A stretch of 45,545 nt of DNA from Candidatus Onthoplasma faecigallinarum. Its GTDB lineage: Bacteria; Bacillota; Clostridia; Christensenellales; UBA1242. Within the stretch, counting starts at the first letter, position 1; every line of letters starts with the position of its first letter. Shown here one piece after another: positions 3,383-45,545 of the stretch. The notes beneath the pieces were generated by a model. It searched no databases, was not told the origin of the DNA, and saw only the letters and a list, made by a program, of their open reading frames with translations. The stretch lies in NCBI GenBank assembly GCA_018715225.1, contig DVMB01000044.1, forward strand, positions 1 to 45,545. The letters are read 5' to 3'. Position numbers and translations under genes: made by a program.

Positions 3383-3386
3383 TTGC

Positions 3387-3563: not shown

Positions 3564-3580
3564 ACTTCCCTCCTTTTAAC

Positions 3581-4915: not shown

Positions 4916-4941
4916 CGTTCCCCCTTTTCCCCTTTTAAAAT

Positions 4942-4983
4942 ATGACCCTAGGATTTGCACCCAATTAGACTAAACTCGGTCAT
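4942..4983 (-). ncRNA. candidate tRNA-like minihelix, module A (outer stem + T-arm-like hairpin)
   Basis: Minus strand reads atgacc-gagtttagtctaa-ttggg-tgcaaat-cctag-ggtcat. It has a 6-bp outer stem and a 5-bp inner stem (3 WC + 2 GU) with a 7-nt loop TGCAAAT (canonical T-loop is TTCAAAT). It contains the 22-nt direct repeat 4951..4972. Confidence 0.4.
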
Positions 4984-5672: not shown

Positions 5673-5938
5673 GCGGTGTCGATGAGCGTAATTAATGAAG
5701 TCTTAAGGATAATTGACAACCAATTAGAAAATGAAAAAAAACACACTATGTCATCAACTCGATCATCGAGCAGTTGACAAAGTGTGATGTAGATATCAAA
5801 TCGAATATAGCGTCTTTGTTAGGCAAAAGATGTCGTTTTGAGATGATGAGAAGACCAGACAAGGATAAAGATGTCATAATCGTTCAAGAAATAAATGAAA
5901 AGGAAGTTCCTCAAATGTTATTACAGGAGGAACTAGAA

Positions 5939-6997
5939 ATGAAATATCAAGGAATCACAATTCATAAAAATAAAACTTGCGACACATGGTACACCCGTTA
6001 CCGTGTCGGCGGAAAACAATATTATATCTCTGCAAGGACTCAAAAAGAGTGCCTGGAAAAATTAAAAAAAGCACTATATAATAAAAAACGTGATTATTTT
6101 ATGTCTCAAAAAGAAGAGACGCACAACAAATCGATAACGCTTTTAGATTGGTATCAAAAATGGCTAGAACTTTATAAAATTGGGAAAGTTAAAGAAACCA
6201 CGATAAAAGATTATGAAAAAACTCTAAAATTAATTCACGCCAACATCTTGAATAAAAGGGTTAGAGATATTAAAATAATTGAAGTGTTAGAAAATTTAAA
6301 CAATATTAAAGCGGAACGGCAAAGACAAAAAGCTTATGAATTTTTATACATGATATTTGAAAAAGCTAGAATCAATGATTATGTAGAAAAAAATATTATG
6401 GCAAATATTGATAAGCCAAAGCATAAGAAAAAGAATAGTCAACCGCTAACTAAAGAAGTGGAGCAAAGATTGATAGAAGCTTGCGACAAAGTGTTACATG
6501 GCGACTATTTGTTAGTATGCTTATATCAAGGATTGAGAAAAGGCGAATGTCTAGCAATTACAACAGACGATGTTAATTTTGAAAACAATACTATATCTAT
6601 CAATAAAAGTATCAATGACAGAAATCAATTTGACACTACTAAAAATGAGCAGAGTAATAGAATTATACCTATGTTCGATAGGACAAAACAAATTCTATTA
6701 AGATATAAAGATAAGCAAGGAAGAATCTTTAATTTTGGAAGCAAAATATTACAAAAAGCATTGAGAGAGATAAATACTCGAATTGCCTATCATTTAAAAA
6801 TTAAAGATTTGCGTAGTACCTTTATAACCAGGTGTCAAGAAATGAACATACCAGAGTTTATCATTCAATCATGGGTAGGACATACGATTGGTAGCAAAGT
6901 TACAAAATCTGTTTACACCAAATATAACGCACAAGACAACACTAAATATATAAATATATTTAACAATACAGAATTCTACTCAAATTCTACTCACTAA
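5939..6997 (+). CDS. tyrosine recombinase / phage-type integrase
   Basis: Has an N-terminal SAM-like region (WYQKWLELYK) and a catalytic-domain pattern (GLRKGECLAIT, HTIG, final Y in SVYTKY). It sits 73 nt from the 3' end of tRNA-Glu. ATG at 5939 follows AGGAGG; the track ORF started at an upstream TTG. Confidence 0.85.
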   Translation: MKYQGITIHKNKTCDTWYTRYRVGGKQYYISARTQKECLEKLKKALYNKKRDYFMSQKEETHNKSITLLDWYQKWLELYKIGKVKETTIKDYEKTLKLIHANILNKRVRDIKIIEVLENLNNIKAERQRQKAYEFLYMIFEKARINDYVEKNIMANIDKPKHKKKNSQPLTKEVEQRLIEACDKVLHGDYLLVCLYQGLRKGECLAITTDDVNFENNTISINKSINDRNQFDTTKNEQSNRIIPMFDRTKQILLRYKDKQGRIFNFGSKILQKALREINTRIAYHLKIKDLRSTFITRCQEMNIPEFIIQSWVGHTIGSKVTKSVYTKYNAQDNTKYINIFNNTEFYSNSTH

Positions 6998-7070: not shown

Positions 7071-7145
7071 TGGTAGTCCCAAGGGGAATCGAACCCCTGA
7101 TACCACCGTGAAAGGGTGGTGTCTTAACCGCTTGACCATGGGACC
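7071..7145 (-). tRNA. tRNA-Glu (anticodon UUC)
   Basis: rc reads GGTCCCATGGTCAAGCGGTTAAGACACCACCCTTTCACGGTGGTATCAGGGGTTCGATTCCCCTTGGGACTACCA. It folds as a cloverleaf, the anticodon loop CTTTCAC is colinear with E. coli tRNA-Glu, and CCA is encoded. Confidence 0.9.
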
Positions 7146-7211
7146 AGAAGAGAAGTTTGTTTTATTATTTTACTCTTTTAGGAAGGAAGAAGCTAAGTAA
7201 AATAATAAAAC

Positions 7212-7287
7212 TGGTGGCGGTGGGTAGAATCGAACTACCGATCTATCGGGTATGAACCGATTGCTTTAACCGCTGAGCCACACCGCC
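7212..7287 (-). tRNA. tRNA with CAU anticodon (elongator Met or lysidine-modified Ile2)
   Basis: rc reads GGCGGTGTGGCTCAGCGGTTAAAGCAATCGGTTCATACCCGATAGATCGGTAGTTCGATTCTACCCACCGCCACCA. G1-C72 and the lack of a GGG/CCC anticodon stem argue against an initiator. Confidence 0.85.
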
Positions 7288-7299
7288 ATAAACAAGTTT

Positions 7300-7328
7300 A
7301 GTATACTGAAATTGCAGTTGATTGTCAA
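7300..7328 (-). promoter_or_regulatory. candidate sigma-A promoter for the tRNA-Met/tRNA-Glu unit
   Basis: Minus strand has TTGACA, a 17-nt spacer, then TATACT, ending ~13 nt before the tRNA-Met 5' end. Confidence 0.55.
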
Positions 7329-7360
7329 GGTTTTTTCTACATTTTTTTATAATTTGTTTA

Positions 7361-7834
7361 TTATTCGTTTTTCTTACTTTGAATAGTTCTTTGTTCTAGG
7401 GTTAGTAGGGCACTCTTCATCTCTAGTCCACCGGCGTATCCAACGAGTTTTTTGTCCGTCCCAATCACTCTATGGCAGGGGACAACTATCCATAATGGGT
7501 TGCTGTGGCAAGCCGACCCTACCGCACGATATGCTTTTGGGCTTCCTACTTTGGCCGCCAATTCTTTGTATGTAGTGGTCTCGCCATATTTTACTTGCAT
7601 TAGGGCGGTGTAGACTTTTTGTTGGAAAGGTGTACCCTGTATTTGAATTGGAAGAGAAAAGGCCTGTCTCTTGCCCGAAAAATATTCTTTCAATTTAGAA
7701 AAGGCAGTGTCGGTGGTCTTTGTATGCGTGTTCACAGAGTCGATTTCATTGGTCAATTTGATTGAAAAAATAAGGTCATGAAAATGACCTATCCTTATAT
7801 AACCAGACTTATATTTATAGTAAGCATATTGCAT
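7361..7834 (-). CDS. ogt: methylated-DNA--protein-cysteine methyltransferase
   Basis: Active-site PCHRV motif (VVPCHRVIG) and the DNA-binding region TPFQQKVYTALMQVKYGETTTYKELA. The start was trimmed to MQYAYY because the first 10 track codons overlap tRNA-Gly. Confidence 0.85.
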   Translation of the reverse strand: MQYAYYKYKSGYIRIGHFHDLIFSIKLTNEIDSVNTHTKTTDTAFSKLKEYFSGKRQAFSLPIQIQGTPFQQKVYTALMQVKYGETTTYKELAAKVGSPKAYRAVGSACHSNPLWIVVPCHRVIGTDKKLVGYAGGLEMKSALLTLEQRTIQSKKNE

Positions 7835-7836
7835 AT

Positions 7837-7910
7837 TGGAGCGAGTGATGGGAGTCGAACCCACCTCATAGGCTTGGGAAGCCCACGTACTACCGATGTA
7901 CTACACCCGC
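7837..7910 (-). tRNA. tRNA-Gly (anticodon CCC)
   Basis: rc reads GCGGGTGTAGTACATCGGTAGTACGTGGGCTTCCCAAGCCTATGAGGTGGGTTCGACTCCCATCACTCGCTCCA. Anticodon loop is TTCCCAA, the discriminator is U73 as usual for Gly, and CCA is encoded. Confidence 0.85.
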
Positions 7911-9457: not shown

Positions 9458-9531
9458 AATATACTTTATGATTATTTTGTAAGATTTAGTATTAATTTGT
9501 ATTTTGCCTTAATGCACAATTTTCTATTTTA

Positions 9532-11005
<1,474 letters not shown>

Positions 11006-11013
11006 TTCAAAAA

Positions 11014-11040
11014 GGCTAGACAAAAGAGTCTAGCTTTTTT
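11014..11040 (+). terminator. rho-independent terminator
   Basis: ggctagac-aaaaga-gtctagc followed by TTTTTT, directly after the stop of the collagen-like gene. Confidence 0.7.
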
Positions 11041-11176
11041 ATGCAGTTTTGTGTGGCTAAAATTTTTCAAATCTAAAATTGACAGAATGAATTTTTTAAT
11101 TATTGCAAATTTGTTGGAAAAACAACATAATTGATAAATATTTAATGTTATACTGCTCATATAAAAGGGGATACAT

Positions 11177-13426
11177 ATGAATAAATTCAATTATGAAGCA
11201 TGGAACGGATTCAAAGGTCAAAAATGGAAAGACAACATAGATATCTCTTCGTTTATTGACAGCAATTATACGGAATATACTGGGGATGACAGTTTCCTTG
11301 AGACAAAGTCTATAAAGACTGGCGAAGTTTGGGCAAGGTGTGAAAAATTACTGGCAAAGGAACGAAAAGTAGGTCTATTGGATGTGGAACTCAATAGGAT
11401 ATCTGGCATTAATAACTTCAAGCCAGGATATATTGACAGGAAAAACGAGGTCATTGTGGGGCTACAAACTGACAAACCGCTAAAGAGGATTGTCAATCCT
11501 TTTGGGGGCCTTAGAATGGTGCAGAATGCGCTGAAAGCCTACAATCTCAAGATGAATCCAAGACTAGAGAAAATATTTAGTGATGAAATTAGGAAGACTC
11601 ACAATGACGGCGTGTTTGATGCCTATACGCCAGATATTAGAAAAGCAAGGAGTGCTGGGTTAATCACTGGTTTGCCTGATGCGTATGGTAGGGGAAGAAT
11701 TATTGGAGATTATAGGCGAGTCGCTTTGTATGGTATTGATAGGCTGATAGCAGAAAAAGAAAATGACCTATTGAAACCTCAACTTTTGAAAATAGATAGT
11801 GAGGAAGTGATCCGCTTGCGAGAGGAGATCCATGAGCAAATTCGTGCATTGGATAAAATAAAGCAGATGGCATTTAGTTACGGATACGACATATCTCTAC
11901 CTGCTCGCAACGCACAAGAGGCATTCCAATGGACGTACTTTGCTTATCTTGCTAGCGTCAAAGAGAACAATGGTGCAGCAATGAGCTTAGGTAGAGTATC
12001 CACCTTTTTGGATATATATGTGGAGCGAGACATAAAAAATGGAGTATTGACCGAATATGACGCTCAGGAGTTGGTGGACCAATTTACTATCAAATTGAGA
12101 TTGGTTCGTCATCTGCGTACTCCTGAATATGACGAAGTTTTCGCAGGCGACCCTACCTGGGTTACTGAGAGCATTGGCGGGATGTTGGATGAAAAGAAGA
12201 GTTTGGTTACTAAAAACTCATTTAGATTTTTACATAGTTTGATAAATCTCGACCCTAGTCCAGAACCAAATTTGACAATATTGTGGTCAAATGGACTCCC
12301 TGAAAACTTCAAGAAATATTGTGCCAAAATTTCGATTTTGACCGACAGCATACAATACGAAAGCGATGATGCCATGCGTCCAATATATGGGCATGATTAT
12401 GCCATTGCCTGCTGTGTGTCCGCCATGAAGGTGGGAAAGCAAATGCAATTCTTTGGTGCGAGATGCAATCTAGCAAAATCGCTGTTGTATTCTATAAATG
12501 GTGGCGTGGACGAAAAATCTAACAAATTAGTAGTCGACGGCATTGAGCCAATCAAAGATGAAGTGCTAGATTATGAAAAGGTCAAAAAAGCATATTTCAA
12601 GACCTTAGAGAAAATTGCGAAGACATATGTGGATGCGTTGAACATCATTCATTATATGCATGACAAGTACGCATACGAAGCAGGGCAGATGGCGTTGCAT
12701 GACAGTTTTGTAGAACGCTTGATGGCATTTGGTGTGGCAGGTTTGAGCGTGGCGACAGATTCGCTCTCTGCCATAAAATATGCCAAAGTATATCCTATTC
12801 GAAACGAGAATGGGGTGGCGGTTGATTTCAAAATAGAGGGAGAATTTCCTAAATATGGGAATGATGACGACTCGGTAGACCAGATAGCAGTGGATATTGT
12901 CAAACATTTTATCAAGTGTTTGAGAAAACACAAATTGTATAGGAATGCAATTCATACTTTGTCCGCATTGACTATCACTTCCAACGTGATGTATGGCAAA
13001 AAGACTGGCACCACTCCTGACGGGAGAAAAGCAGGCGAACCTTTTGCTCCAGGGGCAAACCCTATGCACGGCAGAGATTGTTCGGGGGCTTTGGCATCAC
13101 TCAATTCGGTGGCAAAGATACCTTATTGTAACGTCTGCCAAGACGGCATTTCAAACACTTTCTCTATTGTGCCTAACGCTTTGGGTAGGGATGAAAATGA
13201 GCGTATCAAAAATTTGGTTTCAATTTTGGACGGATATTTCAAACAAGGGGCACAACACATCAATGTCAACGTCTTGAATAGAGAAAAACTGATTGATGCA
13301 ATGAACCATCCAGATAAATATCCAACTTTGACAATTCGAGTGTCCGGATATGCGGTCAATTTCAACAAACTATCTCGTGCACATCAAGAGGAAGTCATTG
13401 CACGTACTTTCCATGAAAAAATTTAA
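11177..13426 (+). CDS. pflB: formate C-acetyltransferase (pyruvate formate-lyase)
   Basis: 749 aa with the active-site Cys-Cys (IACCVSAMK) and the C-terminal glycyl-radical motif [11 protein letters not shown]. Confidence 0.95.
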
Positions 13427-33821: not shown

Positions 33822-33850
33822 TTGACAAAATCGTCTATGTGTGATAAACT
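33822..33850 (+). promoter_or_regulatory. candidate sigma-A promoter of LRR paralogue 1
   Basis: TTGACA, a 17-nt spacer (ending atgtgtga), then TAAACT. Confidence 0.5.
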
Positions 33851-33872
33851 TTTTATTTTAAAAAGAGGTACC

Positions 33873-36806
33873 ATGCTTAACAAATTAAATAATAGACTAA
33901 ATCTAGTCATTGAAGGTAACACATTGACAGATGTTAAGAATAAATCTATCCAAGTTGTCAGTTTACCAAATACTATTAATACAATAAGTACAAAGGCTTT
34001 TTCGCTATGCGAATCTTTGACTGAGGTTTTCATACCAGAATCGGTTAGAGAAATTGATCGCTCTGCCTTTAGATTTTGTTTTTCTCTATCAAGTGTAGTT
34101 ATCCCAGATTCAGTTACAGAAATGGGAGACAGCATTTTTTATGGCTGTCGTTCTCTATCAAATATAAAATTGCCAAATTATATAACAGAAATTCCAAATT
34201 ACACTTTTTATAACTGCTCGTCTTTGATGGATGTAACGATCCCAAATTCTGTAGAGACTATTGGCGATTATGCTTTTGAAAATTGTAGTACTTTGTACAG
34301 TGTTGATTTCCATAGTTCGCTAAGGAAAATAGGTACTAAAGCATTCGCCAACTGCTATTCTTTAAAAGACATCACTCTACCAAATTCTCTTGAGACTATA
34401 GGTAATGAAGCGTTTTTAAACTGCTCCTCTTTAGAGACGGTTATCATACCTAAATCGGTTACGTCCATAGGCTTCAATGCATTTAGAGGTTGTCAGTCTT
34501 TAAAGACCATTATTATACCTAATTCGGTCAAAAAAATTGGCTTCGGAGCGTTCGCTGATTGCCCTTCCCTAACACAGATTATTTTACCTGATTCGCTTAC
34601 GCAAATAGAAGAAAACACTTTTGCCAACTGTCGTTCTTTGGAGTCTGTTTATATACCATCATCAATCGAAGATATCTCCAGTAGAGCGTTTAGAGATTGC
34701 ATAGCTTTGAAAGCAATTATTATCCCTGAATCTATATCTATCATCAATAGAGGCACTTTTGCCGGCTGTAAGTCTTTGACTGAAGTCAAACTACCTGAAG
34801 GCTTAAAATTCATTGATGCGGAAGCTTTCTCTGGATGTTCTAATCTTGCCAATATCAATATGCCAGATTCTGTTCAAAGCATTGGCATGATGGCATTCTA
34901 TGGCTGTCGTGGTCTAAAACATGTAACAATTCCTAATTCAGTTACAGAAATCAGCAACCGACTATTTGGCTATTGTAGAGCCCTACAATCTGTTACCCTG
35001 CCAGACTCAATTACAAGGATTGGTCCTGGAGCCTTTATGGCCTGTTCTGCTCTAAAAAAGATTGTTCTCCCCGCATCTGTTACAGAGATACAAGCCAGTG
35101 CTTTCACTGGGTGTGGTTCTTTGACTAGTATTGAAATTCTATCCCCTAATATTAAAATAGGCGAAGGTGCATTCGCAGGATGTAGATCGTTGACTAGCAT
35201 AAACAACATAAGAATTGAACACTCTAGCGATTCAATTTACTCACTGACCAGATTTCCAAAAGAATGTCTAGCACATGCTAGAATCAAAAAAGTTGGCAAT
35301 GATTTTAATCTAGATATCTCTAGAAACGAATTCGAAACTCCAGATGAGACTAAAAAGACCATTAAAAACCCTTATCTTCTCAACTATTACATGAGATTTT
35401 ATGACGATAAGAAAAAATGGGACTTTTTATCTAAAATTGACACCAACTTTGCAAAATATTTGTATTCTAAGGACATTTCTTTCTTTGATGATAATATACA
35501 AATTGATTATAACAAAATTTTTGATTACAATATAAAAAGTATAAACAATTTACTAAAATCAATCAATGATAGAGCCGCATCTGTCCATGAAAATATTACA
35601 AATGTAAACTTAGAAAATTTCTTCAAATTTTGTGAAAATTTGGGAGTGTTGAACAATACCTGCACCACTGTAAAAACCGTCTCCAAATCGGGTAATAAAA
35701 AAATTCAAGAGATCGACTACGCTCAAAAAACTAGAGAGTTTTTGAAGGACAAAATATTAAGTGGAGTTTTGCCTTTAGCTAGATTCAATGCGATGTTCGA
35801 AAATATGGAATTAAAGGGATTCAAACAAGGATTCACAGACTTTTTCCTAAATAAAAATAATTTCGACGAACTGATGATACATGAAAGACTCTATCCTGGT
35901 TTCATCGCTAAATGCTATAACGAATTTGAAGCCGTGCAAGCCGCCCACACTTCTCAGCGTGGAAGCCAAAGAAAACTAGCCCCTACGGTCGAATTTTTCT
36001 ATAAATATTTCTTAGTAAATAAATTTAATGGCATCACAGAAGAGACAAAAGCAATAGCCGCAACCATTTCCCCTTACTTCTCTTCTCAAGCTGATTTTGA
36101 CAACGCCGTCAACATAGACAACGAAAGAAAGATGAAAAAAATCGCAGACCATATAATAGGCGAAGAGATAAAGGAAGAGACAGTATTTGAAAAAGTGGAT
36201 AGTTTGATCCAACAAACCAAAGAAGTCGCAGTCGACACCACCGCTACCCTAGTAGATCTAGCCAGTAGAAAATTTACGTACGAATTTTTGAGTAAAAGTG
36301 ATCCAGCGAATTTCGTATTGGGGAAATTGTGTAATTGCTGTGCTCACCTCGAGGGTGTTGGAAACGGTATCATGTGTGCCAGCATCGTTCACCCTGATGT
36401 GCAAAACATTGTCATTAGAGACAAACATGACGTTATTGTAGCGAAATCTACATTGTATGTGAACCGAGAAGAAGGTTACGGCGTTTGCAACAATATAGAG
36501 GTAAATACTGATATAAGTGAAGAAGATAAAAAGTTGATATATCAAAAATTTAAAAAAGCGATTGAAACCTTTGCAAACAAATACAATAAAAAATATCCTA
36601 ATAAGCCAATAAGAATAATAACTGTGGGTATGCACTTAAATGATTTAGAAAATGAAATTACACAGCATGATAAACGCTCTCAAGTATTAAAAGCGATAGA
36701 TTATGGCGACTATGCATTCGTAGGCTCAGGATATAGTGGCGACAGCGATAAGGAACAATACACTTTATGGCAAAGCGAGGATGATACAAACAACAATAAC
36801 GTATAG
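33873..36806 (+). CDS. BspA-type leucine-rich-repeat protein with conserved unassigned C-terminal module (paralogue 1, 977 aa)
   Basis: 18 units of the 23-aa repeat IPxSVTxIGxxAFxxCxSLTxIV, then a ~510-aa module shared with the next three genes. The start was trimmed to MLNKLNNRLN (AGAGG RBS). There is no signal peptide. Confidence 0.85.
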   Translation: MLNKLNNRLNLVIEGNTLTDVKNKSIQVVSLPNTINTISTKAFSLCESLTEVFIPESVREIDRSAFRFCFSLSSVVIPDSVTEMGDSIFYGCRSLSNIKLPNYITEIPNYTFYNCSSLMDVTIPNSVETIGDYAFENCSTLYSVDFHSSLRKIGTKAFANCYSLKDITLPNSLETIGNEAFLNCSSLETVIIPKSVTSIGFNAFRGCQSLKTIIIPNSVKKIGFGAFADCPSLTQIILPDSLTQIEENTFANCRSLESVYIPSSIEDISSRAFRDCIALKAIIIPESISIINRGTFAGCKSLTEVKLPEGLKFIDAEAFSGCSNLANINMPDSVQSIGMMAFYGCRGLKHVTIPNSVTEISNRLFGYCRALQSVTLPDSITRIGPGAFMACSALKKIVLPASVTEIQASAFTGCGSLTSIEILSPNIKIGEGAFAGCRSLTSINNIRIEHSSDSIYSLTRFPKECLAHARIKKVGNDFNLDISRNEFETPDETKKTIKNPYLLNYYMRFYDDKKKWDFLSKIDTNFAKYLYSKDISFFDDNIQIDYNKIFDYNIKSINNLLKSINDRAASVHENITNVNLENFFKFCENLGVLNNTCTTVKTVSKSGNKKIQEIDYAQKTREFLKDKILSGVLPLARFNAMFENMELKGFKQGFTDFFLNKNNFDELMIHERLYPGFIAKCYNEFEAVQAAHTSQRGSQRKLAPTVEFFYKYFLVNKFNGITEETKAIAATISPYFSSQADFDNAVNIDNERKMKKIADHIIGEEIKEETVFEKVDSLIQQTKEVAVDTTATLVDLASRKFTYEFLSKSDPANFVLGKLCNCCAHLEGVGNGIMCASIVHPDVQNIVIRDKHDVIVAKSTLYVNREEGYGVCNNIEVNTDISEEDKKLIYQKFKKAIETFANKYNKKYPNKPIRIITVGMHLNDLENEITQHDKRSQVLKAIDYGDYAFVGSGYSGDSDKEQYTLWQSEDDTNNNNV
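33963..35204 (+). repeat. 69-nt-periodic LRR coding repeat array (18 units)
   Basis: Units counted directly in the translation. Confidence 0.8.
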
Positions 36807-36819
36807 CCTGACATCTACT

Positions 36820-36848
36820 TTGACAAATTCATTATGAAATAATATAAT
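36820..36848 (+). promoter_or_regulatory. candidate sigma-A promoter of LRR paralogue 2
   Basis: TTGACA, a 17-nt spacer, then TATAAT. Confidence 0.55.
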
Positions 36849-36874
36849 CGCATAAACTATTAAATGGAGAAAAT

Positions 36875-39454
36875 ATGTTTGAGAGATTAAAAAATAGACT
36901 CAATTTTGTCATTCATGGGTCTACGCTACGAGAAATCCGTAATAGAGAGATAGAAAGCGTCGAGATCCCAAAATCTGTAAAAATAATCGGTCATTCTGCT
37001 TTCATGGGTTGTGAATATTTAACCAGTGTAGAGATTCCTGACACGGTTACCGAAATTGCTGGCTCCGCTTTCATGAATTGCAAGTCTTTAAGAAACATTG
37101 CGATCCCTGAATCTGTAACTAAAATTGACGAATACGCTTTTGCAGCCTCTGGTCTAAGATATATTGATCTACCACGTTCTATTACCGAGATCCATGATGG
37201 AATTTTCTATAACTGTTATAATCTATCCAGCGTTACTATACCAGACGCTATCACTCGTATTGGATCAAAGGCTTTTAGTGGTTGCGAATCTTTGACAGAT
37301 GTTGTTGTACCTACTTCGGTTACCGAGATTGGAGACACTACTTTTAGCGGTTGTAGATCACTAAAGAGTATTGTGATACCTAACTCGGTGAGTATTATTA
37401 AATATAATACTTTTTATGGTTGTGCGAATTTAAGAGACATCGCAATCCCTGACTCAGTTACTGAGATTGAATATAGTGCTTTTTCTGCCTGCAAATCTTT
37501 GACAGATGTTGTGATCCCTGATTCTGTCAAAAAAATTGGGGACTATGCTTTTAGTGAGTGCGAATCTTTGAAAAGTATTGTACTACCTAACTCAATTGAC
37601 AAAATTGATACAGGCACGTTTTATAATTGTCAGTCTCTAACAAGCATTGTTATACCCTCTTCAGTTACAAAAATCAGGTATAAAGCCTTCAATAATTGCT
37701 CATCGTTGACAAGCATTGTGATACCCGATTCGGTTACAGAGATTGAAGACCAAGCGTTTGCTGGCTGTACATCGCTCGAAAATCTCGTCATTCCTGAGAC
37801 TGTAAAGCGTATTGGAGACAAGGCTTTGGATGAATGTTACGCTTTGGATATTACCTTTAATATCGTTAATGATTGTTATTATAATTCTTCTTTGCCAATA
37901 CTCGGCGAGCCATTCACTGCTGTGCTCACAAAAACTGACGACAAATTTACCCTTAGGTTTACGAAAGATAAAGTAACAAATTTAGATAAAAATCAAAAAA
38001 TTATCACCAACCCTTATCTCATTAATTATTATATGCATTTCTTCGATGACAAAAAGACCTTTGACATGTTGAATACGGTCGATAAAGATTATGCAAGATA
38101 TTTGTACACGAAAGATTTTGAAATGCATTGTGATGGTTTACCTGTAGATTACAATGGTATACTTTTCAAAAATATAAAAAGTATCAATAATTTTGTAAAA
38201 GCAATAAAATCTACTGACCCGGGTGCATTTGATACTACTCGTTTAGACAATAAATTTGCCCTATTCAAACTTTGCGAAAACCTTGGCGTACTAAACGACT
38301 TTACCTCCACAGTCGTCTCGACCTCAAAATCAGGAAAAACAAAGACTCAGCAAATCGACTATGCCCAGAAAGCAAGAGAATTTTTAAAGGACAGAATAGC
38401 GGATGGTTCACTACCACTTAGATACTTTAATAGGACCTTTGATAGTATGAAACCTTATGGATTCAAACAAGAGTTTGCAGACTTTTTCCTAAACAAAAAC
38501 AATTTTGAAGAACTAATGGAAGAAGAGCGTCATGAAGATGGATTTATCGCTAGATGTTACAACGAGTTTGAATTAGTTCAATCTACTCACACTTCTCAGC
38601 GAGGAAGCCAACGACAACTTGCCCCTACTGTAGAATATTTCAAACAATATTTTACAAAAAACAAGTTTTCTGGCGTAACTCCTGAAACGCTTAAAATTGC
38701 TACAACCGTATCTCAATATTTCACTAAACAAAAAGATTTCGATAAGGCTGTTGAAATTGATGAAGAACGAAAGAAAAAAAGAATACCAGACAACATCTTG
38801 GGCGATGAAATCATCCAGGAAGAGACCGTATTTGAAAAAGTAGATAGTTTATTGAAAGAAACAAAAAACATCGCTATAGATGCTACCTCTACCCTAGTAG
38901 ATCTAGCCAGTAGAAAATTTACGTACGAATTTTTAAGGAAAAGTGATCCAACAAATTTCGTGTTAGGAAAATTGTGTAGTTGCTGTTCTCACCTAGAAGG
39001 AGCAGGCAACGGAATCATGCATGCAAGTATTGTTCACCCTAATGTGCAAAATATTGTCATACGAGACAAATCGGGAAATATCGTTGCGAAATCTACCCTG
39101 TATGTCAATCGAAAAGAGGGCTATGGAGTATGCAACAATGTTGAGGTCAATATCCATGTCGAAGATGAAGACAAACAATTAATTTATCAAAAATATAAGA
39201 AAGCGATTGAGACCTTTGCAAATAGATACAATAAAAAATATCCAAACAAACCATTAAAAATAATCACTGTAGGCATGCATCTAAATGATTTGAGAAATCA
39301 AATAGAGAGTGAAGATACAAAATCTAAAAAATTATACCATGCCCTAGATTATGGAAAATACGGTTACGATGATTCACATTACAGCGGAGATAGTGGCGAA
39401 TTGCAATATGTTGTGTGGCAAAACACTGATTTGAGTGACGGGCAAACTTTATAG
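36875..39454 (+). CDS. BspA-type LRR protein with conserved unassigned C-terminal module (paralogue 2, 859 aa)
   Basis: 13 LRR units, then the shared C-terminal module. No signal peptide (MFERLKNRLNFVIHG). Confidence 0.85.
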   Translation: MFERLKNRLNFVIHGSTLREIRNREIESVEIPKSVKIIGHSAFMGCEYLTSVEIPDTVTEIAGSAFMNCKSLRNIAIPESVTKIDEYAFAASGLRYIDLPRSITEIHDGIFYNCYNLSSVTIPDAITRIGSKAFSGCESLTDVVVPTSVTEIGDTTFSGCRSLKSIVIPNSVSIIKYNTFYGCANLRDIAIPDSVTEIEYSAFSACKSLTDVVIPDSVKKIGDYAFSECESLKSIVLPNSIDKIDTGTFYNCQSLTSIVIPSSVTKIRYKAFNNCSSLTSIVIPDSVTEIEDQAFAGCTSLENLVIPETVKRIGDKALDECYALDITFNIVNDCYYNSSLPILGEPFTAVLTKTDDKFTLRFTKDKVTNLDKNQKIITNPYLINYYMHFFDDKKTFDMLNTVDKDYARYLYTKDFEMHCDGLPVDYNGILFKNIKSINNFVKAIKSTDPGAFDTTRLDNKFALFKLCENLGVLNDFTSTVVSTSKSGKTKTQQIDYAQKAREFLKDRIADGSLPLRYFNRTFDSMKPYGFKQEFADFFLNKNNFEELMEEERHEDGFIARCYNEFELVQSTHTSQRGSQRQLAPTVEYFKQYFTKNKFSGVTPETLKIATTVSQYFTKQKDFDKAVEIDEERKKKRIPDNILGDEIIQEETVFEKVDSLLKETKNIAIDATSTLVDLASRKFTYEFLRKSDPTNFVLGKLCSCCSHLEGAGNGIMHASIVHPNVQNIVIRDKSGNIVAKSTLYVNRKEGYGVCNNVEVNIHVEDEDKQLIYQKYKKAIETFANRYNKKYPNKPLKIITVGMHLNDLRNQIESEDTKSKKLYHALDYGKYGYDDSHYSGDSGELQYVVWQNTDLSDGQTL
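36965..37858 (+). repeat. LRR coding repeat array (13 units)
   Basis: Units counted in the translation; unit 3 is 22 aa. Confidence 0.8.
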
Positions 39455-39473
39455 GGAAAACAAAAATAAAAAA

Positions 39474-39548
39474 ATGATTTCTAACTAGACATAACGACAT
39501 CTTGGACGAGCAAATCAAAATAAATAAAAACAAGCATCTAGACTTATA
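39474..39548 (+). pseudogene. decayed 5' remnant of the coiled-coil gene found intact at 45404
   Basis: tttctaactagacataacgacatcttggacgagcaaatcaaaataaa aligns with ttttaactagatataacgagatcttagacgagcagatcaaaataaa at 45421 onward. The homologous frame has no start and stops after ~23 codons (FLTRHNDILDEQIKINK...). Confidence 0.6.
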
Positions 39549-39575
39549 GGCTTTTTAACTTAACAAATTAGACTG

Positions 39576-39606
39576 AAAAAGATAGTATATCCGCTATCTT
39601 TTTTGT
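39576..39606 (+). terminator. rho-independent terminator
   Basis: aaaagatag-tatatccg-ctatctttt followed by a T-run. Confidence 0.65.
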
Positions 39607-39694
39607 TTGCTCTTTCGCTATAAATTGTCCATTCTATTCTCTTTTTCCTTTAGTTATGTTACAAAATAAATTGACTTGCAATTTACCCTTAAGA

Positions 39695-39723
39695 TTGACA
39701 ATTTGCCTCATATGTGATAGTAT
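39695..39723 (+). promoter_or_regulatory. candidate sigma-A promoter of LRR paralogue 3
   Basis: TTGACA, a 17-nt spacer (ending atatgtga), then TAGTAT. Confidence 0.5.
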
Positions 39724-39741
39724 ATTTCTATAAGGAGAATT

Positions 39742-42700
39742 ATGGCTGACAACGATAATTTAATAATCATAGGAAATAATCTAGTAGGAGTTCGCAATAT
39801 TAATGTGTCCAAGATAAAAATTCCTGATTATGTTACCAATATTGATGATCATGCGTTTTATGGATGCTATTATCTAGCGGAGGTTGTCATCCCAAAGTCT
39901 GTCACTAGGATTGGGAATCGTGCTTTTTTAGATTGCTCGTCTTTAAGAGAACTAGTTATCCCCGATTCAGTTACCCAAATTGACGAATATGCTTTTTGTA
40001 GATGTGCCTCTCTAAGCAGTGTTGTTTTACCCAATTCAATTACTAGGATCGACGAGGGTCTTTTTAAAGAATGTAGTTTACTTACTCATGTCGTTATACC
40101 TAATTCGGTAGTTAGTATTGAACCTTATGCCTTTGAAGAATGTCTAAATTTAACAAATATAACTATTCCAAATTCGGTTAAAGAGATCGCTACCTCTGCT
40201 TTTCGTGGTTGCTCTTCTCTAGTCAATATCAATATCCCAAATTCAGTTACCACCATTGGCGAAAGAGCTTTTAGCGGGTGCAGGGCTTTGACTAGTATTG
40301 AGATCCCTCAATCAGTTACAGAACTTGGGGAAGAAGTTTTTGCTAGCTGTGTATCTCTAACAGACGTTTCTTTACCCAACTCAATCAAAACAATCAACCA
40401 GTTCACTTTCGCTGGATGTACTTCGCTATATAGAATTGTCATTCCTAGTTCGGTTACAAATATTGAGAAAGGGGGGTTTTCTCGCTGCTGGTCGTTAGAG
40501 GATATTGTCATTCCAAACTCAGTTACTAATATAGGTGAAAGTGCTTTTCAACACTGTGCAACACTAGCTAGCATTGCCCTGCCCAATTCCATAACTAAGA
40601 TTGAAACTAATCTCTTTGAGCATTGCATATCGCTACGTAATGTCGTTATTCCTGATTCCGTTACCAGCATTGGAAGTGGGGCTTTCGGCGGTTGTTCGGC
40701 ATTAACCAATATCGACATTCCAAACTCGGTTACGAAAATTTATACTTTTGCGTTTGAAGAATGCACGGCTTTAACCAGCATTGTCATTCCAGATTCTGTT
40801 ACTGAAATTTACAATTTTGTTTTCCGTAATTGTTCGTCTCTAAATAATGTGGTTTTGCCAAATACGCTTAAAGCCATTGGCTATGGTGCATTTACTAAGT
40901 GCACTGCCCTAACATCAATCGTCATACCTAATTCAGTTACAAGCATTGAAATGGAGACGTTTTACGGCTGTTCGTCACTAACTCATGTGACCATCCCTAA
41001 TTCTATTACTGAGATTAGTGCTTCAACATTCGCTCAATGCACTGCTCTAAAAAACATCATTATTCCAGACTCGGTAGCCATCATTGATGCCAATGCTTTT
41101 TCAAACTGCACATCTTTGACTAATATTACCATTCCGTCGTCAGTTAATGAAATTGGTTTATATGCATTTGGTGGTTGTTCGTCGCTAACAGACGTCGTCA
41201 TCTCTAGTTCAAATACCCATATTTCTTCAAATGCGTTCATAGGTTGTTCATCTCTAAATAATATCAAAATTCATATAGACAACAACAATTATTCAATGGT
41301 CAAAAATTTAGTTGGAGTGTTATCTTTTGATCACGCTAGGCTAACCAAGACCAAAGATGGATTTGACCTTGAGTTGTCAAAAGATGAACTAACTGCTACG
41401 AATAAAGACCAAAGATGTATCGACAATCCATTTTTGCTGAACTATTATATAAAGTTTTTTAATGATGAGAGAAAACTCTCCGCTCTAGATAGAATTGACT
41501 CTGGGTTCTCAAAATACTTTTTTGATAGAGAAATATCAATGAGGTCAGCCGATGAAGAGATTGACCCCAATGCTTTTTCAAAATACAATTTGAAGAGCAT
41601 AAACAATCTATTGAAAGCAATCAAAGGTAATAGCGACCATATATTCAACACAGCACAGGACGAATACGATTTCTTCAAACTTTGCGAGAATTTAGGGGTA
41701 TTGAACGTCTCTCCTACCACAATTAAGACGATTTCAAAATCTGGCAATGAAATAACCCAAACCATTGACTACTCACAGAAAGCAAGGGAATTTTTAAAGG
41801 ACAGAATTTTAGAGGGAACGCTGTCCATTGAACAAATACATGCCATGTTTGACAGCATGAAGATAGACGGGTTCAAGCAAGGTTTTGCGGACTTTTTCTT
41901 GAATAAAAACAATTTCAATGAATTAATGGCTGAGGAACGAAATCAGTCAGGCTTTATTGCCAGATGTTACAATGAGTTTGAAATGGTACAGTTTGCTCAC
42001 ACTTCTCAGCGTGGAAACCAAAGACAACTCGCCCCCACTGTAGAATTTTTCAAAGACTACTTCATATCTAGCAAATTCCAAGGCGTAACTCAAGAGACAA
42101 GGAAAATCGCTGAAGCTATTTCTCCATATTTTTCTCAGCAAAAAGATTTTGGAAACGCTGTCAAAATTGATCAAGAAAGACAAGAAAACGACACTCCTGA
42201 CAACATATTGGGAGATGAAGTGATTCGTGAAGAGGGCGTGTTTGAAAAAGTAGATAGTTTGTTAAAATCAACCAAAGACATCTCTATTGACACCACCGCT
42301 ACCCTAGTCGATTTAGCGAATAGAAAATTTACGTTTGAGTTATTGAATAAAAGTGATCCAATTAATTTCGTACTGGGGAAATTGTGTTCTTGTTGTGCTC
42401 ACCTCGAGGGTGCAGGCAACGGAATCATGCGTGCCAGCATTGTCCACCCTGACGTACAAAACATTGTTATACGAGACAAAACTGGAAAAATTGTTGCAAA
42501 ATCTACGCTCTACGTCAACCGAGAAGAGGGATATGCTGTATGTAACAATGTAGAAGTCAACAGCAATGTAGACGATGAGGACTATAAATTAATTTATCTA
42601 AAATTTAAAAAAGCGGTCAAAACTTTTGCTGAAAAATATAACGCAAAATATCCGGACAAACCATTGAAGATAATCACTGTAGGTATGCATCTAAACGATT

Positions 42701-42861
42701 TGAGCGATGAAATCAAAGAAAGCGATGACCAATCGACAATATTATATCAAGCACTTGATTATGGAAAGTATGCTTACGATGGCTCAAGTTACAGCGGAGA
42801 CAGTAGCCAATCTCAATATATCGTATGGGAAACTGACAAAACTGATGGACAGACTATATAA
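39742..42861 (+). CDS. BspA-type LRR protein with conserved unassigned C-terminal module (paralogue 3, 1039 aa)
   Basis: 21 LRR units, then the shared module. AAGGAG RBS. No signal peptide (MADNDNLIIIG). Confidence 0.85.
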   Translation: MADNDNLIIIGNNLVGVRNINVSKIKIPDYVTNIDDHAFYGCYYLAEVVIPKSVTRIGNRAFLDCSSLRELVIPDSVTQIDEYAFCRCASLSSVVLPNSITRIDEGLFKECSLLTHVVIPNSVVSIEPYAFEECLNLTNITIPNSVKEIATSAFRGCSSLVNINIPNSVTTIGERAFSGCRALTSIEIPQSVTELGEEVFASCVSLTDVSLPNSIKTINQFTFAGCTSLYRIVIPSSVTNIEKGGFSRCWSLEDIVIPNSVTNIGESAFQHCATLASIALPNSITKIETNLFEHCISLRNVVIPDSVTSIGSGAFGGCSALTNIDIPNSVTKIYTFAFEECTALTSIVIPDSVTEIYNFVFRNCSSLNNVVLPNTLKAIGYGAFTKCTALTSIVIPNSVTSIEMETFYGCSSLTHVTIPNSITEISASTFAQCTALKNIIIPDSVAIIDANAFSNCTSLTNITIPSSVNEIGLYAFGGCSSLTDVVISSSNTHISSNAFIGCSSLNNIKIHIDNNNYSMVKNLVGVLSFDHARLTKTKDGFDLELSKDELTATNKDQRCIDNPFLLNYYIKFFNDERKLSALDRIDSGFSKYFFDREISMRSADEEIDPNAFSKYNLKSINNLLKAIKGNSDHIFNTAQDEYDFFKLCENLGVLNVSPTTIKTISKSGNEITQTIDYSQKAREFLKDRILEGTLSIEQIHAMFDSMKIDGFKQGFADFFLNKNNFNELMAEERNQSGFIARCYNEFEMVQFAHTSQRGNQRQLAPTVEFFKDYFISSKFQGVTQETRKIAEAISPYFSQQKDFGNAVKIDQERQENDTPDNILGDEVIREEGVFEKVDSLLKSTKDISIDTTATLVDLANRKFTFELLNKSDPINFVLGKLCSCCAHLEGAGNGIMRASIVHPDVQNIVIRDKTGKIVAKSTLYVNREEGYAVCNNVEVNSNVDDEDYKLIYLKFKKAVKTFAEKYNAKYPDKPLKIITVGMHLNDLSDEIKESDDQSTILYQALDYGKYAYDGSSYSGDSSQSQYIVWETDKTDGQTI
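39820..41268 (+). repeat. LRR coding repeat array (21 units)
   Basis: Units counted in the translation. Confidence 0.8.
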
Positions 42862-43023
42862 AGATAAATAAATTCAATATTTTATATAAATTATGATATT
42901 AAAATCAATTTTAAAATCTCTTCGGCTTTCTACTAAGCAATAAATATAAAATAACTATACTAAATTCTTATAATCACGGAGGGATCATGAATGATTTAGT
43001 TTATTTAGCAATAGTTTATAAAT

Positions 43024-43052
43024 TTGACAGAATTGTACATCTATGTTAAAAT
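43024..43052 (+). promoter_or_regulatory. candidate sigma-A promoter of LRR paralogue 4
   Basis: TTGACA, a 17-nt spacer, then TAAAAT. Confidence 0.55.
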
Positions 43053-43074
43053 TGATTTAGCTAAAGGAGAAAAT

Positions 43075-45393
43075 ATGGCTGATTACGATGATAATCTAAT
43101 CATTGAGGGCACTACCCTAGTTGGTATTAATATTCACAAACCAAAACTGAATGTCGTTATCCCTGATTTTGTTACGTCCATAGCCAATCAAGCCTTTACT
43201 GGTTGTAATATGGTGAATAACATTACTATTCCTAACTCAGTTACAAGTATTGGGGATATGGCTTTTAGGGGTTGCACCTCTCTTACCAACATAGTTATTC
43301 CAGATTCAGTTACCAGCATTGGTTGGGGGGCTTTCAGCGACTGCATCTCGCTAAGAGACATTACCCTTCCTAATTCAATTACCAGCGTTAAAAATTTCAC
43401 TTTCCATATGTGTGGTGCTTTAAAAAACATTGTTATACCCTCCTCAGTTACAGAAATTGGTGCTAATGCTTTTGATGGCTGTACCTCGCTCACTAGTATC
43501 GTCATTCCAGATTCTGTTACTAGCCTTGGTCATTCTGCATTTTATAATTGCTCGTCTCTTAGAGAAATCATTATTCCTAACTCTATTACTGCCATTAGTA
43601 ATCTAACTTTTTGGGGTTGCAATTCTCTCAACAAGGTCGTAATTCCAAACTCTGTTACTACAATTGGAGAGAGCGCATTCTTTGATTGTACTTCACTGAC
43701 TGAGATTGTTATCCCTAGTTCTGTTACAAATATTGCTGATGAAGTATTCCGTTCTTGCGATAACTTAAAAAAAGTTAGATACTATTTACCCAATGGCATT
43801 TATCATAACATTGCAGAAGCATTCAATGTCGGCGGGAATCGATTTTCTCCTGAGATTTCCTATGCTATTCTCACCAAAACCGCAGACGGGTTTATCCTTG
43901 ATATGTCAGCAGATGAACTTGAAGTTACAAATAGGAATCAAAGGAAAGTCAATAATGTTTCTTTAATCAATTATTATATCAAGTTTTTTGATGATGAGAA
44001 GAAACTAGATGCTTTAGATAAAATTGACCCAGAATTTGCTGATCTTATAGATATCAATAATTTAGAAAAAATAAGGAATTGTCATATGCAATATGATGAT
44101 ATTGATTATGATGCAGTTTTCAATTATAACATAAAAAGTTGGAACAATTTGTCAAAAGTTAGCAATCTTGAATGTCAATTCATGTTTAATGTTAGTGATT
44201 TCTTCAAACTTTGCAACAATCTTGGAGTGTTAAATTCTAGTCCAACCGTAGTTAAATCAATCTCAAAATCTGGCAATGAAAAAACTCAACAAATAGACTA
44301 CTCTCAAAAGGCAAGAGAATTTTTAAAAGATAGATTTTTAGACGGATCTTTATCAATTGACAAAATGCATTCCATGTTTGACAGTATGCTTCCGCTTGGA
44401 TTCAAGCAAGAGTTCGCCGACTTCTTCCTAAACAAGAAAATTTTTGAAGAATTGATGGTACAGGAAAGAGCCGAATCTGGCTTTATCGCTAGGTGCTACA
44501 ATGAATTTGAAAAGGTTCAGGCTGCACACACAAGCCAGCGTGGAAGCCAAAGACAACTCGCCCCTACTGTCGAATTCTTCAAACAATACTTTTTAGAAAA
44601 CAAATTTGAAGGAGTGACAAGCGAAACAGAGGCAATCGCTAAAACCATATCTCCGTATTATTCTAAGCAAGAAGATTTTGACAAAGCCGTACAAATTGAT
44701 CAAGAAAGACGAGAAAAAAACATTCCTGACAACATCTTAGGCGAGGAAACCATACAAGAACAGACTGTGTTTGAAAAGGTAGATAGTTTATTGAAAGAGA
44801 CAAAAGAAGTCTCAATAGACACCACCTCTACCCTAGTAGATCTGGCGAATAGAAGATTCACTTACGAATTTTTGAGTAAAAGTGATCCTATTAATTTTGT
44901 ACTTGGGAAATTGTGCAGTTGTTGTGCCCACCTAGAGGGTGCAGGTAACGGAATCATGCGTGCCAGCATTGTTCACCCTGACGTGCAAAACATTGTCATT
45001 CGAGACAAAAATGGAGTAATAGTTGCGAAATCTACTCTATACGTCAACCGAGCAGAAGGTTACGGCGTGTGTAACAATGTCGAGGTGAATAATAATGTCA
45101 GTGATGAAGACGCAGAACTGATATACAAAAAATTCAAGAAAGCAGTTGAGACATTCGCAGAAAAATATAACGTCAAATATCCAGACAAACCATTGAAGAT
45201 AATAACTGTAGGCATGAACCTAAACGACTTATCTTCACAAATCACTAAAAACGATAGACAATCTAATGAATTATATCAAGCATTGAATTATGGTACCTAT
45301 GCTTATAGCGGTTCGGGATACAACGGAGATAGCAAAAATTCGCAATATGTCGTATGGGAAAACACAGATTTGACAGATGGTCAAACTTTATAA
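43075..45393 (+). CDS. BspA-type LRR protein with conserved unassigned C-terminal module (paralogue 4, 772 aa)
   Basis: 9 LRR units, then the shared module. The start was trimmed to MADYDDNLIIEG (AAGGAG RBS). Confidence 0.85.
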   Translation: MADYDDNLIIEGTTLVGINIHKPKLNVVIPDFVTSIANQAFTGCNMVNNITIPNSVTSIGDMAFRGCTSLTNIVIPDSVTSIGWGAFSDCISLRDITLPNSITSVKNFTFHMCGALKNIVIPSSVTEIGANAFDGCTSLTSIVIPDSVTSLGHSAFYNCSSLREIIIPNSITAISNLTFWGCNSLNKVVIPNSVTTIGESAFFDCTSLTEIVIPSSVTNIADEVFRSCDNLKKVRYYLPNGIYHNIAEAFNVGGNRFSPEISYAILTKTADGFILDMSADELEVTNRNQRKVNNVSLINYYIKFFDDEKKLDALDKIDPEFADLIDINNLEKIRNCHMQYDDIDYDAVFNYNIKSWNNLSKVSNLECQFMFNVSDFFKLCNNLGVLNSSPTVVKSISKSGNEKTQQIDYSQKAREFLKDRFLDGSLSIDKMHSMFDSMLPLGFKQEFADFFLNKKIFEELMVQERAESGFIARCYNEFEKVQAAHTSQRGSQRQLAPTVEFFKQYFLENKFEGVTSETEAIAKTISPYYSKQEDFDKAVQIDQERREKNIPDNILGEETIQEQTVFEKVDSLLKETKEVSIDTTSTLVDLANRRFTYEFLSKSDPINFVLGKLCSCCAHLEGAGNGIMRASIVHPDVQNIVIRDKNGVIVAKSTLYVNRAEGYGVCNNVEVNNNVSDEDAELIYKKFKKAVETFAEKYNVKYPDKPLKIITVGMNLNDLSSQITKNDRQSNELYQALNYGTYAYSGSGYNGDSKNSQYVVWENTDLTDGQTL
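43159..43779 (+). repeat. LRR coding repeat array (9 units)
   Basis: Units counted in the translation. Confidence 0.8.
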
Positions 45394-45403
45394 GGGGGAT
45401 AAA

Positions 45404-45545
45404 ATGGAAAAAGTAGACAATTTTTTAACTAGATATAACGAGATCTTAGACGAGCAGATCAAAATAAACAAGATGATCAACAAAGCCGAGCAGACAATTG
45501 AAAAATTAAAAGTGCAATACAAGTCTGCTGACATGAAAGAAAAAG
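45404..45545 (+). CDS. hypothetical coiled-coil-like protein (partial, continues beyond the window)
   Basis: ATG lies 10 nt after the paralogue 4 stop, with a GGGGGA RBS. Translation is MEKVDNFLTRYNEILDEQIKINKMINKAEQTIEKLKVQYKSADMKEK. Confidence 0.55.
   Translation, partial: MEKVDNFLTRYNEILDEQIKINKMINKAEQTIEKLKVQYKSADMKEK

Follow-up and report, generated by a model that had tools for sequence, protein, structure and literature searches.

What do tandemly arranged leucine-rich repeat (LRR) proteins do in a bacterium if they carry no recognizable export signal and share a large C-terminal module without a family name? The question is raised by a 45,545-nucleotide stretch of DNA from Candidatus Onthoplasma faecigallinarum, an uncultured Clostridia bacterium (Christensenellales) of the chicken gut (GenBank assembly GCA_018715225.1, contig DVMB01000044.1; referred to in full as the window), in which four large genes follow one another at the right-hand end. 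An earlier note, made from the sequence alone, had pointed to them as a potentially undescribed system combining a variable LRR recognition part with a constant, putatively catalytic part. The encoded proteins belong to an undescribed, large and gut-specific protein family, and structure prediction suggests that the shared module ends in a divergent GNAT-type domain. We tentatively read the proteins as cytoplasmic LRR proteins carrying a GNAT-like effector module, accompanied by a small modulating partner. Open reading frame (ORF) calls agree with the four consecutive two-part genes described in the note:

33873..36806, + strand: gene 1, 977 aa, 18 LRR_5 units and the C-terminal module
36875..39454, + strand: gene 2, 859 aa, 13 LRR_5 units (36875-37879) and the module (37880-39451)
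39742..42861, + strand: gene 3, 1039 aa, 21 LRR_5 units and the C-terminal module
43075..45393, + strand: gene 4, 772 aa, 9 LRR_5 units and the C-terminal module

LRR families were the only Pfam domains detected in the four proteins. All of them matched LRR_5 (PF13306) in their N-terminal part, with E-values of 7.8e-136, 5e-106, 3.4e-207 and 3.3e-66 for genes 1-4 and scores of 221-677 bits compared to a gathering cut-off of 27.7. Counting an anchor motif at exact 23-aa spacing gave 18, 13, 21 and 9 units, precisely the numbers previously reported, and the LRR-coding DNA showed a periodicity of 69 nt; the assignment of the repeats to the 23-aa BspA/LRR_5 type thus holds.

The C-terminal parts are, as had been claimed, colinear in all four paralogs, extending over approximately 520 aa with 60-68% pairwise identity. 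The module could not be placed in any family from its sequence in the earlier note, and the curated libraries lead to the same result: no above-threshold Pfam family covered the module, either in the single proteins or in 20 members scanned individually (E ≤ 10), no family match was obtained from NCBIfam, PHROGs or PADLOC, and sequence searches of the PDB with profiles of 4, 14 and 20 sequences returned no match. In PADLOC-DB 2.0, a spurious 14-bit match of gene 2 to HamB was the sole result among the four genes. DUF6933 (PF22016) appeared below threshold in 5 of the 20 members, at 16-21 bits compared to a gathering cut-off of 27 bits; these weak matches always covered the segment GFIxRCYNEFExVQ..RGSQRQL and the same region of the profile, and DUF6933 is itself uncharacterized. 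No NTPase domain (NACHT, NB-ARC or AAA P-loop) was detected when the full proteins were scanned against Pfam and NCBIfam, in agreement with the view that this is not a STAND/NLR layout. Database entries for family members are named just "leucine-rich repeat domain-containing protein", and literature searches on PcfJ-like proteins, DUF6933/PF22016/PF14284, signal-less BspA-like proteins of Firmicutes and LRR-GNAT combinations in defence brought up no description of the family. The term "undescribed system" can stand if it is taken to mean an unannotated family, and no more.

Part of the module could be placed by predicted structure. An AlphaFold2 model of the gene 2 module (524 aa, based on a 74-sequence alignment) was obtained with a mean predicted local distance difference test score (pLDDT) of 91.8 and a predicted template modelling score (pTM) of 0.86, and comprises a helical domain (residues ~1-345) followed by a GNAT-like domain (residues ~345-524). 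When the whole module was compared to the PDB with Foldseek, all 50 matches listed were GNAT enzymes (Gcn5/PCAF, SpeG, RimL, NatD and PseH), with E-values from 5.4e-4 to 1.1e-2, probabilities of 0.99-1.0 and 133-233 aligned columns. Residues 1-345, modelled separately (pLDDT 91.1), gave no PDB match (best E 0.65), and the GNAT signal consequently belongs to residues ~345-524. In the C-domain, DSSP assigned a strand, two short helices, a loop, a helix, three strands, a long helix, a strand, a helix and a strand; this order, beta-alpha-alpha-beta-beta-beta-alpha-beta-alpha-beta, matches the GNAT topology, which runs beta1-alpha1-alpha2-beta2-beta3-beta4-alpha3-beta5-alpha4-beta6. The last ~180 aa are thus predicted, at weak Foldseek scores, to adopt a GNAT-type fold. 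This gives the label "putative catalytic" a structural basis, and the constant part may indeed be catalytic. The domains and the most conserved motif are located as follows:

~35250-36803, + strand: gene 1, module
36273-36803, + strand: gene 1, GNAT-like domain
36330-36368, + strand: gene 1, CNCCAH..GxGxG motif
~37880-38914, + strand: gene 2, helical domain (fold unmatched)
38918-39451, + strand: gene 2, GNAT-like domain
38975-39013, + strand: gene 2, CSCCSH..GxGxG motif
41275-42858, + strand: gene 3, module
42328-42858, + strand: gene 3, GNAT-like domain
42385-42423, + strand: gene 3, Cys/His-Gly motif
43816-45390, + strand: gene 4, module
44857-45390, + strand: gene 4, GNAT-like domain
44914-44952, + strand: gene 4, Cys/His-Gly motif

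Across 211 aligned members, the residues conserved in at least 90% of the sequences are concentrated in the C-domain, with K354, D356, N359, K364, C366, C368, C369, H371, G374, G376, Q390 and N391 in its first half and K404, T406, N410, Y415, N419, Y450, N451, G465, N469, D504 and Q509 in its second. The near-invariant CxCCxH..GxGxG insertion occupies the alpha1-alpha2 region of the GNAT-like domain and may bind metal or phosphate. In GNAT enzymes, the substrate cleft is formed by the alpha1-alpha2 loop, beta4, beta5 and beta6; judged by their position in the predicted secondary structure, the conserved residues fall in the alpha1-alpha2 loop, beta4, the exit of beta5 and beta6, and would thus be expected to cluster in space. 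The module accordingly resembles the GNAT superfamily in its strand and helix order, in the Foldseek matches listed and in having conserved residues at what appear to be substrate-binding positions, and differs from it by the inserted Cys/His-Gly element and by the fused helical domain of ~345 aa, as well as by two absences that are weighed below.

The earlier note had also drawn an analogy to effectors of the IpaH/SspH type, which combine LRRs with a NEL domain. IpaH, SspH and SlrP have a common design with the array proteins: N-terminal LRRs serve specificity, a conserved C-terminal domain of catalytic type contains a Cys that looks essential, and a genome encodes several paralogs. The analogy found no structural backing, as no NEL domain, which has a catalytic Cys (CxD) and confers E3 ligase activity in those proteins, was among the 50 PDB matches listed for the whole module or for the helical part. 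The NEL effectors moreover differ in sequence and in LRR subtype. The present hosts are Gram-positive commensals of the gut, and the stretches examined showed no genes for type III secretion.

Where the proteins act is indicated by what their termini lack. Signal peptides and transmembrane segments were called by hydropathy heuristics (Kyte-Doolittle, 19-residue), which found no hydrophobic N-terminal segment in the four proteins (highest 19-residue value 1.35) and no transmembrane segment. No LPXTG-like motif was present in the four proteins, whose C-termini are polar, and no wall-binding or other anchor domain was found among their Pfam matches, all of which bears out the earlier description. 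In-frame stops lie 7-20 codons 5' of each ATG. The same heuristics detected a signal-peptide-like N-terminus in 0 of 187 full-length Met-starting family members and, with the exception of one chimeric protein, no transmembrane segment among them; as Sec signals are absent from 187 relatives, their lack characterizes the family and is no artefact of annotation. BspA-type LRR proteins, such as Tannerella BspA, Treponema LrrA and the streptococcal HupY/LrrG, also carry bona fide 23-aa LRR_5 units, but the array proteins have neither the Sec signal or lipobox nor the transmembrane segment, LPXTG motif or wall-binding domain expected of a BspA-like surface adhesin, and their LRRs are fused to a 520-aa module. 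The proteins are most likely cytoplasmic. Placement in a spore coat or exosporium as the reason for the missing signals (the host encodes SpoIVB and YtfJ) was set aside in view of the vegetative sigma-70-type promoter matches and of the occurrence of the family also in Bacilli and "Tenericutes"-like metagenome-assembled genomes (MAGs).

The family is large. A hidden Markov model (HMM) search of 1.84 billion representatives retrieved 1070 clusters, defined at 50% identity, with E ≤ 1e-3, and 449 with E ≤ 1e-30; the best 150 of the 1070 clusters were LRR-module proteins or bare modules. When nine members of 533-1356 aa were scanned again, seven had only LRR domains upstream of the module, while P0133 showed a sub-threshold TMP_N match besides and P0146 had no Pfam match. 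The module always forms the end of the protein (median tail 0 aa; median N-terminal extension 346 aa) and was almost always fused to LRR_5 repeats among the members examined, with stand-alone modules also occurring (e.g. P0018, 512 aa). Among GTDB species representatives, all 59 loci came from uncultured gut Bacillota MAGs, including Clostridia/Christensenellales, Bacilli, Erysipelotrichaceae and "Tenericutes" from chicken, rabbit, roe deer, mouse and human; that all carriers found are uncultured explains why the curated domain libraries searched are blind to the family. Genomes hold several copies; a roe-deer MAG, for example, was matched in eight places and a single contig of 335 kb in five, and tandem arrays of module genes recur at other loci. 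Apart from the small helical gene discussed below, the neighbours are unconserved except in one closely related group of Bacilli.

In a divergent branch from Bacilli, "Tenericutes" and Erysipelotrichaceae MAGs (L058-L062, L064-L066 and L069), the module genes have a conserved, divergently oriented gene of ~262 aa upstream and, following the next downstream gene, a convergent gene of ~237 aa. Both flanking genes are unannotated, and their conservation may reflect simple synteny or additional partners.

Genes 1-4 were further compared to their counterparts in a second strain (L001), with the ratio of nonsynonymous to synonymous substitution rates (dN/dS) calculated according to Nei-Gojobori. The LRR parts are 97, 97, 91 and 63% identical between the strains and the modules 99.6, 99.6, 98.7 and 93%. 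The modules had dN/dS values of 0.04-0.16 and the LRR parts 0.07-0.31, with no gene-wide positive selection in any of the four genes. Values this low imply that both parts are functional and under purifying selection, which is strong for the module, the LRR part being less constrained. The synonymous rate itself ranged from 0.013 in gene 1 to 0.83 in the LRR part of gene 4, an approximately 60-fold spread along the array, a pattern which points to a recombination mosaic formed by recombination or gene conversion among cassettes.

The array does not end where the window does, as the earlier note had supposed in counting four genes closed by a small coiled-coil gene. On the near-identical contig L005 (L005:1-18313), from which the products of genes 2 and 3 are 100% identical to those of the window, the end of the window corresponds to position ~9711. 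There, gene 4 is followed by a 90-aa gene, LRR-module genes of 720 and 928 aa, a second 90-aa gene and an LRR-module gene of 896 aa, giving an array of seven large genes, three of them beyond the window, and two small ones. Genes for a pseudouridine synthase, PBP5, YtfJ and ScpB lie 3' of the array on this contig, and housekeeping genes flank it on both sides. The remaining window is likewise chromosomal in content (PNPase, FtsK, pyruvate formate-lyase and SpoIVB), and the gene 2 product (P0001) is recorded on four metagenomic contigs.

Each of genes 1-4 has a GGAG-type ribosome-binding site before its ATG. The proposal that every cassette has its own promoter is supported to the extent that a sigma-70-like site was found 5' of each gene, these sites being matches to the consensus pattern only:

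33822..33850, + strand: sigma-70-like promoter match 5' of gene 1, TTGACA-17-TAAACT with TG extension
36820..36848, + strand: sigma-70-like promoter match 5' of gene 2, perfect 12/12, TTGACA-17-TATAAT
39695..39723, + strand: sigma-70-like promoter match 5' of gene 3
43024..43052, + strand: sigma-70-like promoter match 5' of gene 4, 11/12 with TG

The four intergenic regions were also searched for promoter elements that are invertible or phase-variable, and nothing but AT-rich repeats attributable to chance turned up.

These observations allow a surface role to be weighed. We consider it improbable that the array encodes surface or released adhesin-like proteins which leave the cell by a Sec-free route (lysis, a holin-type pathway, vesicles or another system), with the module serving as an anchoring, assembly or export domain. 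LRR_5 is the repeat of the BspA adhesins, tandem LRR paralogs with promoters of their own resemble internalin islets, the family occurs in several copies and is restricted to bacteria of host guts, and its LRRs diverge faster than the module between strains, all of which would suit such proteins. Not one of the 187 full-length members has a signal-peptide-like start, however, the four proteins have no sorting motif or wall-binding domain, and some 20 near-invariant polar residues on an enzyme fold would be unusual for an anchor. Furthermore, no holin or secretion genes conserved beside the arrays were found in the examined loci.

The small gene that had been taken to terminate the array is instead a partner gene that recurs, and in many genomes its translation is coupled to that of some cassettes. 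In the window it is represented by an intact 5' part and by a decayed relative:

45404..45545, + strand: small coiled-coil/helical-hairpin gene, 5' part (47 codons of 90 aa; the window ends inside)
39478..39534, + strand: decayed small-gene remnant 3' of gene 2, FLTRHNDILDEQIKINKNK, stop-interrupted, in the 287-bp spacer

The intact gene starts at 45404, not 45405, 10 nt after the stop of gene 4, has its own ribosome-binding site and encodes a K/E-rich protein; beyond the remnant, positions 39576-39609 hold a short hairpin with a T-run. When the neighbours of module genes were clustered over the loci retrieved, a single non-LRR family was found to recur, with proteins of 78-90 aa. Its HMM matched 20 ORFs, distributed over 19 loci and at least 14 different MAGs. 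In 11 of the 20 matches the gene lies on the same strand, -19 to +16 nt from the stop of a module gene; another three, also on the same strand, overlap the stop by as much as 145 nt. A convergent arrangement with a 5-nt gap is seen in two entries, which represent a single contig counted twice. In the small proteins, two long helical stretches are linked by a central turn, Y..(N/D)P.D, and a PDB sequence search returned insignificant coiled-coil matches only. The gene is frequent, not universal: it follows two of the seven cassettes in this array, and most relatives are without it. The two array copies of the 90-aa gene are 98% identical, whereas the adjacent large genes are only ~64% identical.

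At one locus the small gene follows a chimera. On L008 (ENA scaffold_3442), positions 10001-11302 encode a protein of 433 aa (P0059) combining a ZorA-like membrane N-terminus (Zorya MotA/ExbB-type) with the C-terminal ~210 aa of a module that is a mosaic of genes 2 and 4; downstream come the 90-aa gene and then the next LRR gene. Either the scaffold was misjoined at this point, or genes 1-4 were indeed replaced by recombination in another strain.

A small gene placed directly downstream, often overlapping or translationally coupled, might also suggest a toxin-immunity conflict module, in which the C-terminus would be a GNAT-type toxin (like the tRNA-acetylating toxins), the small protein its immunity protein or antitoxin, and the LRR part a device for delivery or activation. 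The GNAT-like fold at the C-terminus, the near-identity of the small genes beside much less similar large genes, and the decayed copy 3' of gene 2 are in line with this idea, which we nevertheless regard as unlikely. Five of the seven cassettes have no small gene, and most relatives likewise do without one. Polymorphic toxins have a constant N-terminus and a variable C-terminal toxin, the opposite of the polarity found here, and the array proteins have no trafficking domain. Known GNAT toxins pair with upstream ribbon-helix-helix antitoxins, and K/E-rich coiled coils are atypical as immunity proteins.

Relatives of the module were also sought among phages and plasmids. In BFVD, Foldseek ranked first a protein of 656 aa labelled "Bacteriophage sp." (E 5.3e-9 over 538 columns), and several other BFVD matches were annotated "PcfJ-like", at E-values of 6e-3 to 6e-2, root-mean-square deviations of 10-25 Å and low TM-scores (0.14-0.17 query-normalised, up to 0.39 target-normalised). 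PcfJ-like proteins (PF14284), known from pCF10 and Herelleviridae phages, are similar in size and likewise combine a helical N-part with a C-domain of ~150 aa that has a Cys/His motif before three strands; in pCF10 PcfJ, PF14284 covers residues 287-433 at 149 bits. Using hhalign, module profiles of 20 and 211 sequences were set against three representations of PcfJ: the pCF10 protein by itself, an alignment of 19 close homologues, and a diverse alignment in which 7 phage proteins were combined with pCF10 PcfJ and five close homologues. The probability was at most 0.3% in every comparison, and membership of the module in the PcfJ family was rejected; nor was PF14284 matched by members of the module family even at E ≤ 10. 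Relaxed hhalign placed the Cys/His motif and three strands in the same order in both, without statistical support, and by eye the PcfJ elements G..L.HCV, IVFIR, TxE and Q.qG.N parallel GK.CxCC.H, NIVIR, AKSTLY and GYGV.N of the module. It is accordingly very doubtful that the array represents a divergent branch of the PcfJ-like family whose mobile-element function was domesticated in chromosomes, as the annotated BFVD matches, the phage protein and the similar motif order are outweighed by the missing HMM and profile-profile support, the poor superpositions and the lack of relatives in IMG/VR, PLSDB and PHROGs.

On pCF10 (L006:15874-17984), the PcfJ gene overlaps a gene annotated as "Cas9 inhibitor AcrIIA9 family protein". 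This hints at PcfJ-domain proteins in anti-defence neighbourhoods, which would be relevant only if the module were related to PcfJ.

A better-supported distant relative is ORF68 of Microcystis phage MaMV-DC (L007:1567-3657), a protein of 697 aa that shares the module core (hhalign probability 91.8%, E 7e-7, 72 columns), consisting of LG..CCxH..GxG, then IIAxS and then N. ORF68 differs in having no LRR and another N-terminal region, is unannotated, and matches neither Pfam nor PHROGs. The alignment places LGLG of ORF68 at the position of GNAT motif A, which suggests that the ancestral domain was a more conventional GNAT. No module relatives were found in the viral contigs of IMG/VR or the plasmids of PLSDB, and INPHARED gave only three weak cyanophage matches; a phage or plasmid origin is thus unsupported. 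When the phage sequence was included in a C-domain profile for a further homology search, nothing beyond short fragments of this family was retrieved, and no bridging family emerged.

Taken as a whole, the reading of these proteins as cytoplasmic LRR proteins with a GNAT-like effector module and a small modulating partner is one we hold as possible rather than probable. According to it, the LRR solenoid, variable in repeat number and sequence, would be the binding part and would select a macromolecular, presumably protein, target inside the cell. The conserved module of ~520 aa would be the effector part, its helical domain packed against the divergent GNAT-fold domain, and could function as a group-transferase, probably of acyl type, or at least as a ligand-binding relative of such enzymes, acting on the target or in response to it. 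An array of paralogs would then provide one chemistry with many specificities, and the helical-hairpin protein of 80-90 aa would most likely bind the module and modulate or inhibit it.

Several observations weigh against this reading. No GNAT profile (Pfam clan Acetyltrans) matched any of 20 members even at E ≤ 10, and the GNAT matches of the model are weak, with target-normalised TM-scores of only 0.30-0.55. The Q/RxxGxG/A loop after beta4 (motif A), which binds the pyrophosphate of coenzyme A, is absent in the LRR-fused family, where the consensus after beta4 (NNVEV........K..IY) holds no conserved Gly; its absence makes a pseudoenzyme possible. The arrays also lie among housekeeping genes, outside defence islands, and gave no PADLOC match.

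Regarding biological role, the layout of a repeat sensor with a fixed effector, the faster divergence of the LRRs, the expansion of paralogs and the distant phage homologue together make a function in conflict or immune sensing the most attractive. Such a role would be the most plausible one. A specific form of it, which we think has only a small chance of being right, would make the proteins STAND-less innate-immune receptors, whose LRR arrays would sense different phage or other foreign proteins and switch on a shared GNAT-derived effector held in check by the coiled-coil partner. By analogy, the NTPase-less defence protein DSR2 (SIR2 with a helical-repeat sensor) and the STAND/NLR-like Avs and bNACHT proteins also combine a repeat domain with an enzyme-like effector, are cytoplasmic and have faster-diversifying repeats; the array proteins differ from them in having no NTPase, SIR2, TIR or nuclease domain and in their genomic context.

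Two further regions of the window were observed besides the array. At its left end, a tyrosine integrase gene (5774-6997, + strand) adjoins genes for tRNA-Glu, tRNA-Met and tRNA-Gly (7071-7910, - strand), and positions 777-4960 hold unannotated genes and a gene for a Listeria-Bacteroides-repeat protein, which together suggest an integrated element. Positions 9575-11005 encode a collagen-triple-helix-repeat protein of 476 aa (Pfam Collagen, E 1.7e-45) that is reminiscent of BclA-type exosporium proteins; the gene lies in a locally GC-rich stretch (0.46 compared to ~0.35), and an antisense ORF over it (9529-10668) is probably an artefact of the repeat.

Fusions of LRRs to enzymatic effectors play a central part in the immunity of eukaryotes and among type III effectors, but cytoplasmic fusions of LRRs and enzymes are hardly known in Gram-positive commensals. 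The design of LRR plus effector is known in principle, while the module, with its unmatched helical domain and predicted atypical GNAT domain, and the helical partner are new. The arrays occupy ~20 kb of genome under purifying selection, and the family comprises more than 1000 clusters at 50% identity. The chemistry of the module, once defined, would annotate thousands of gut-metagenome proteins now listed as "leucine-rich repeat domain-containing". It would also enlarge the catalogue by an atypical branch of the GNATs and by a domain for which the PDB has no structural match, and could reveal a new bacterial pairing of a diversifying recognition domain with a fixed effector. If the immune-receptor reading were true, the arrays would be a functional analogue, in gut Firmicutes with small genomes, of the LRR receptor gene clusters of plants and animals.

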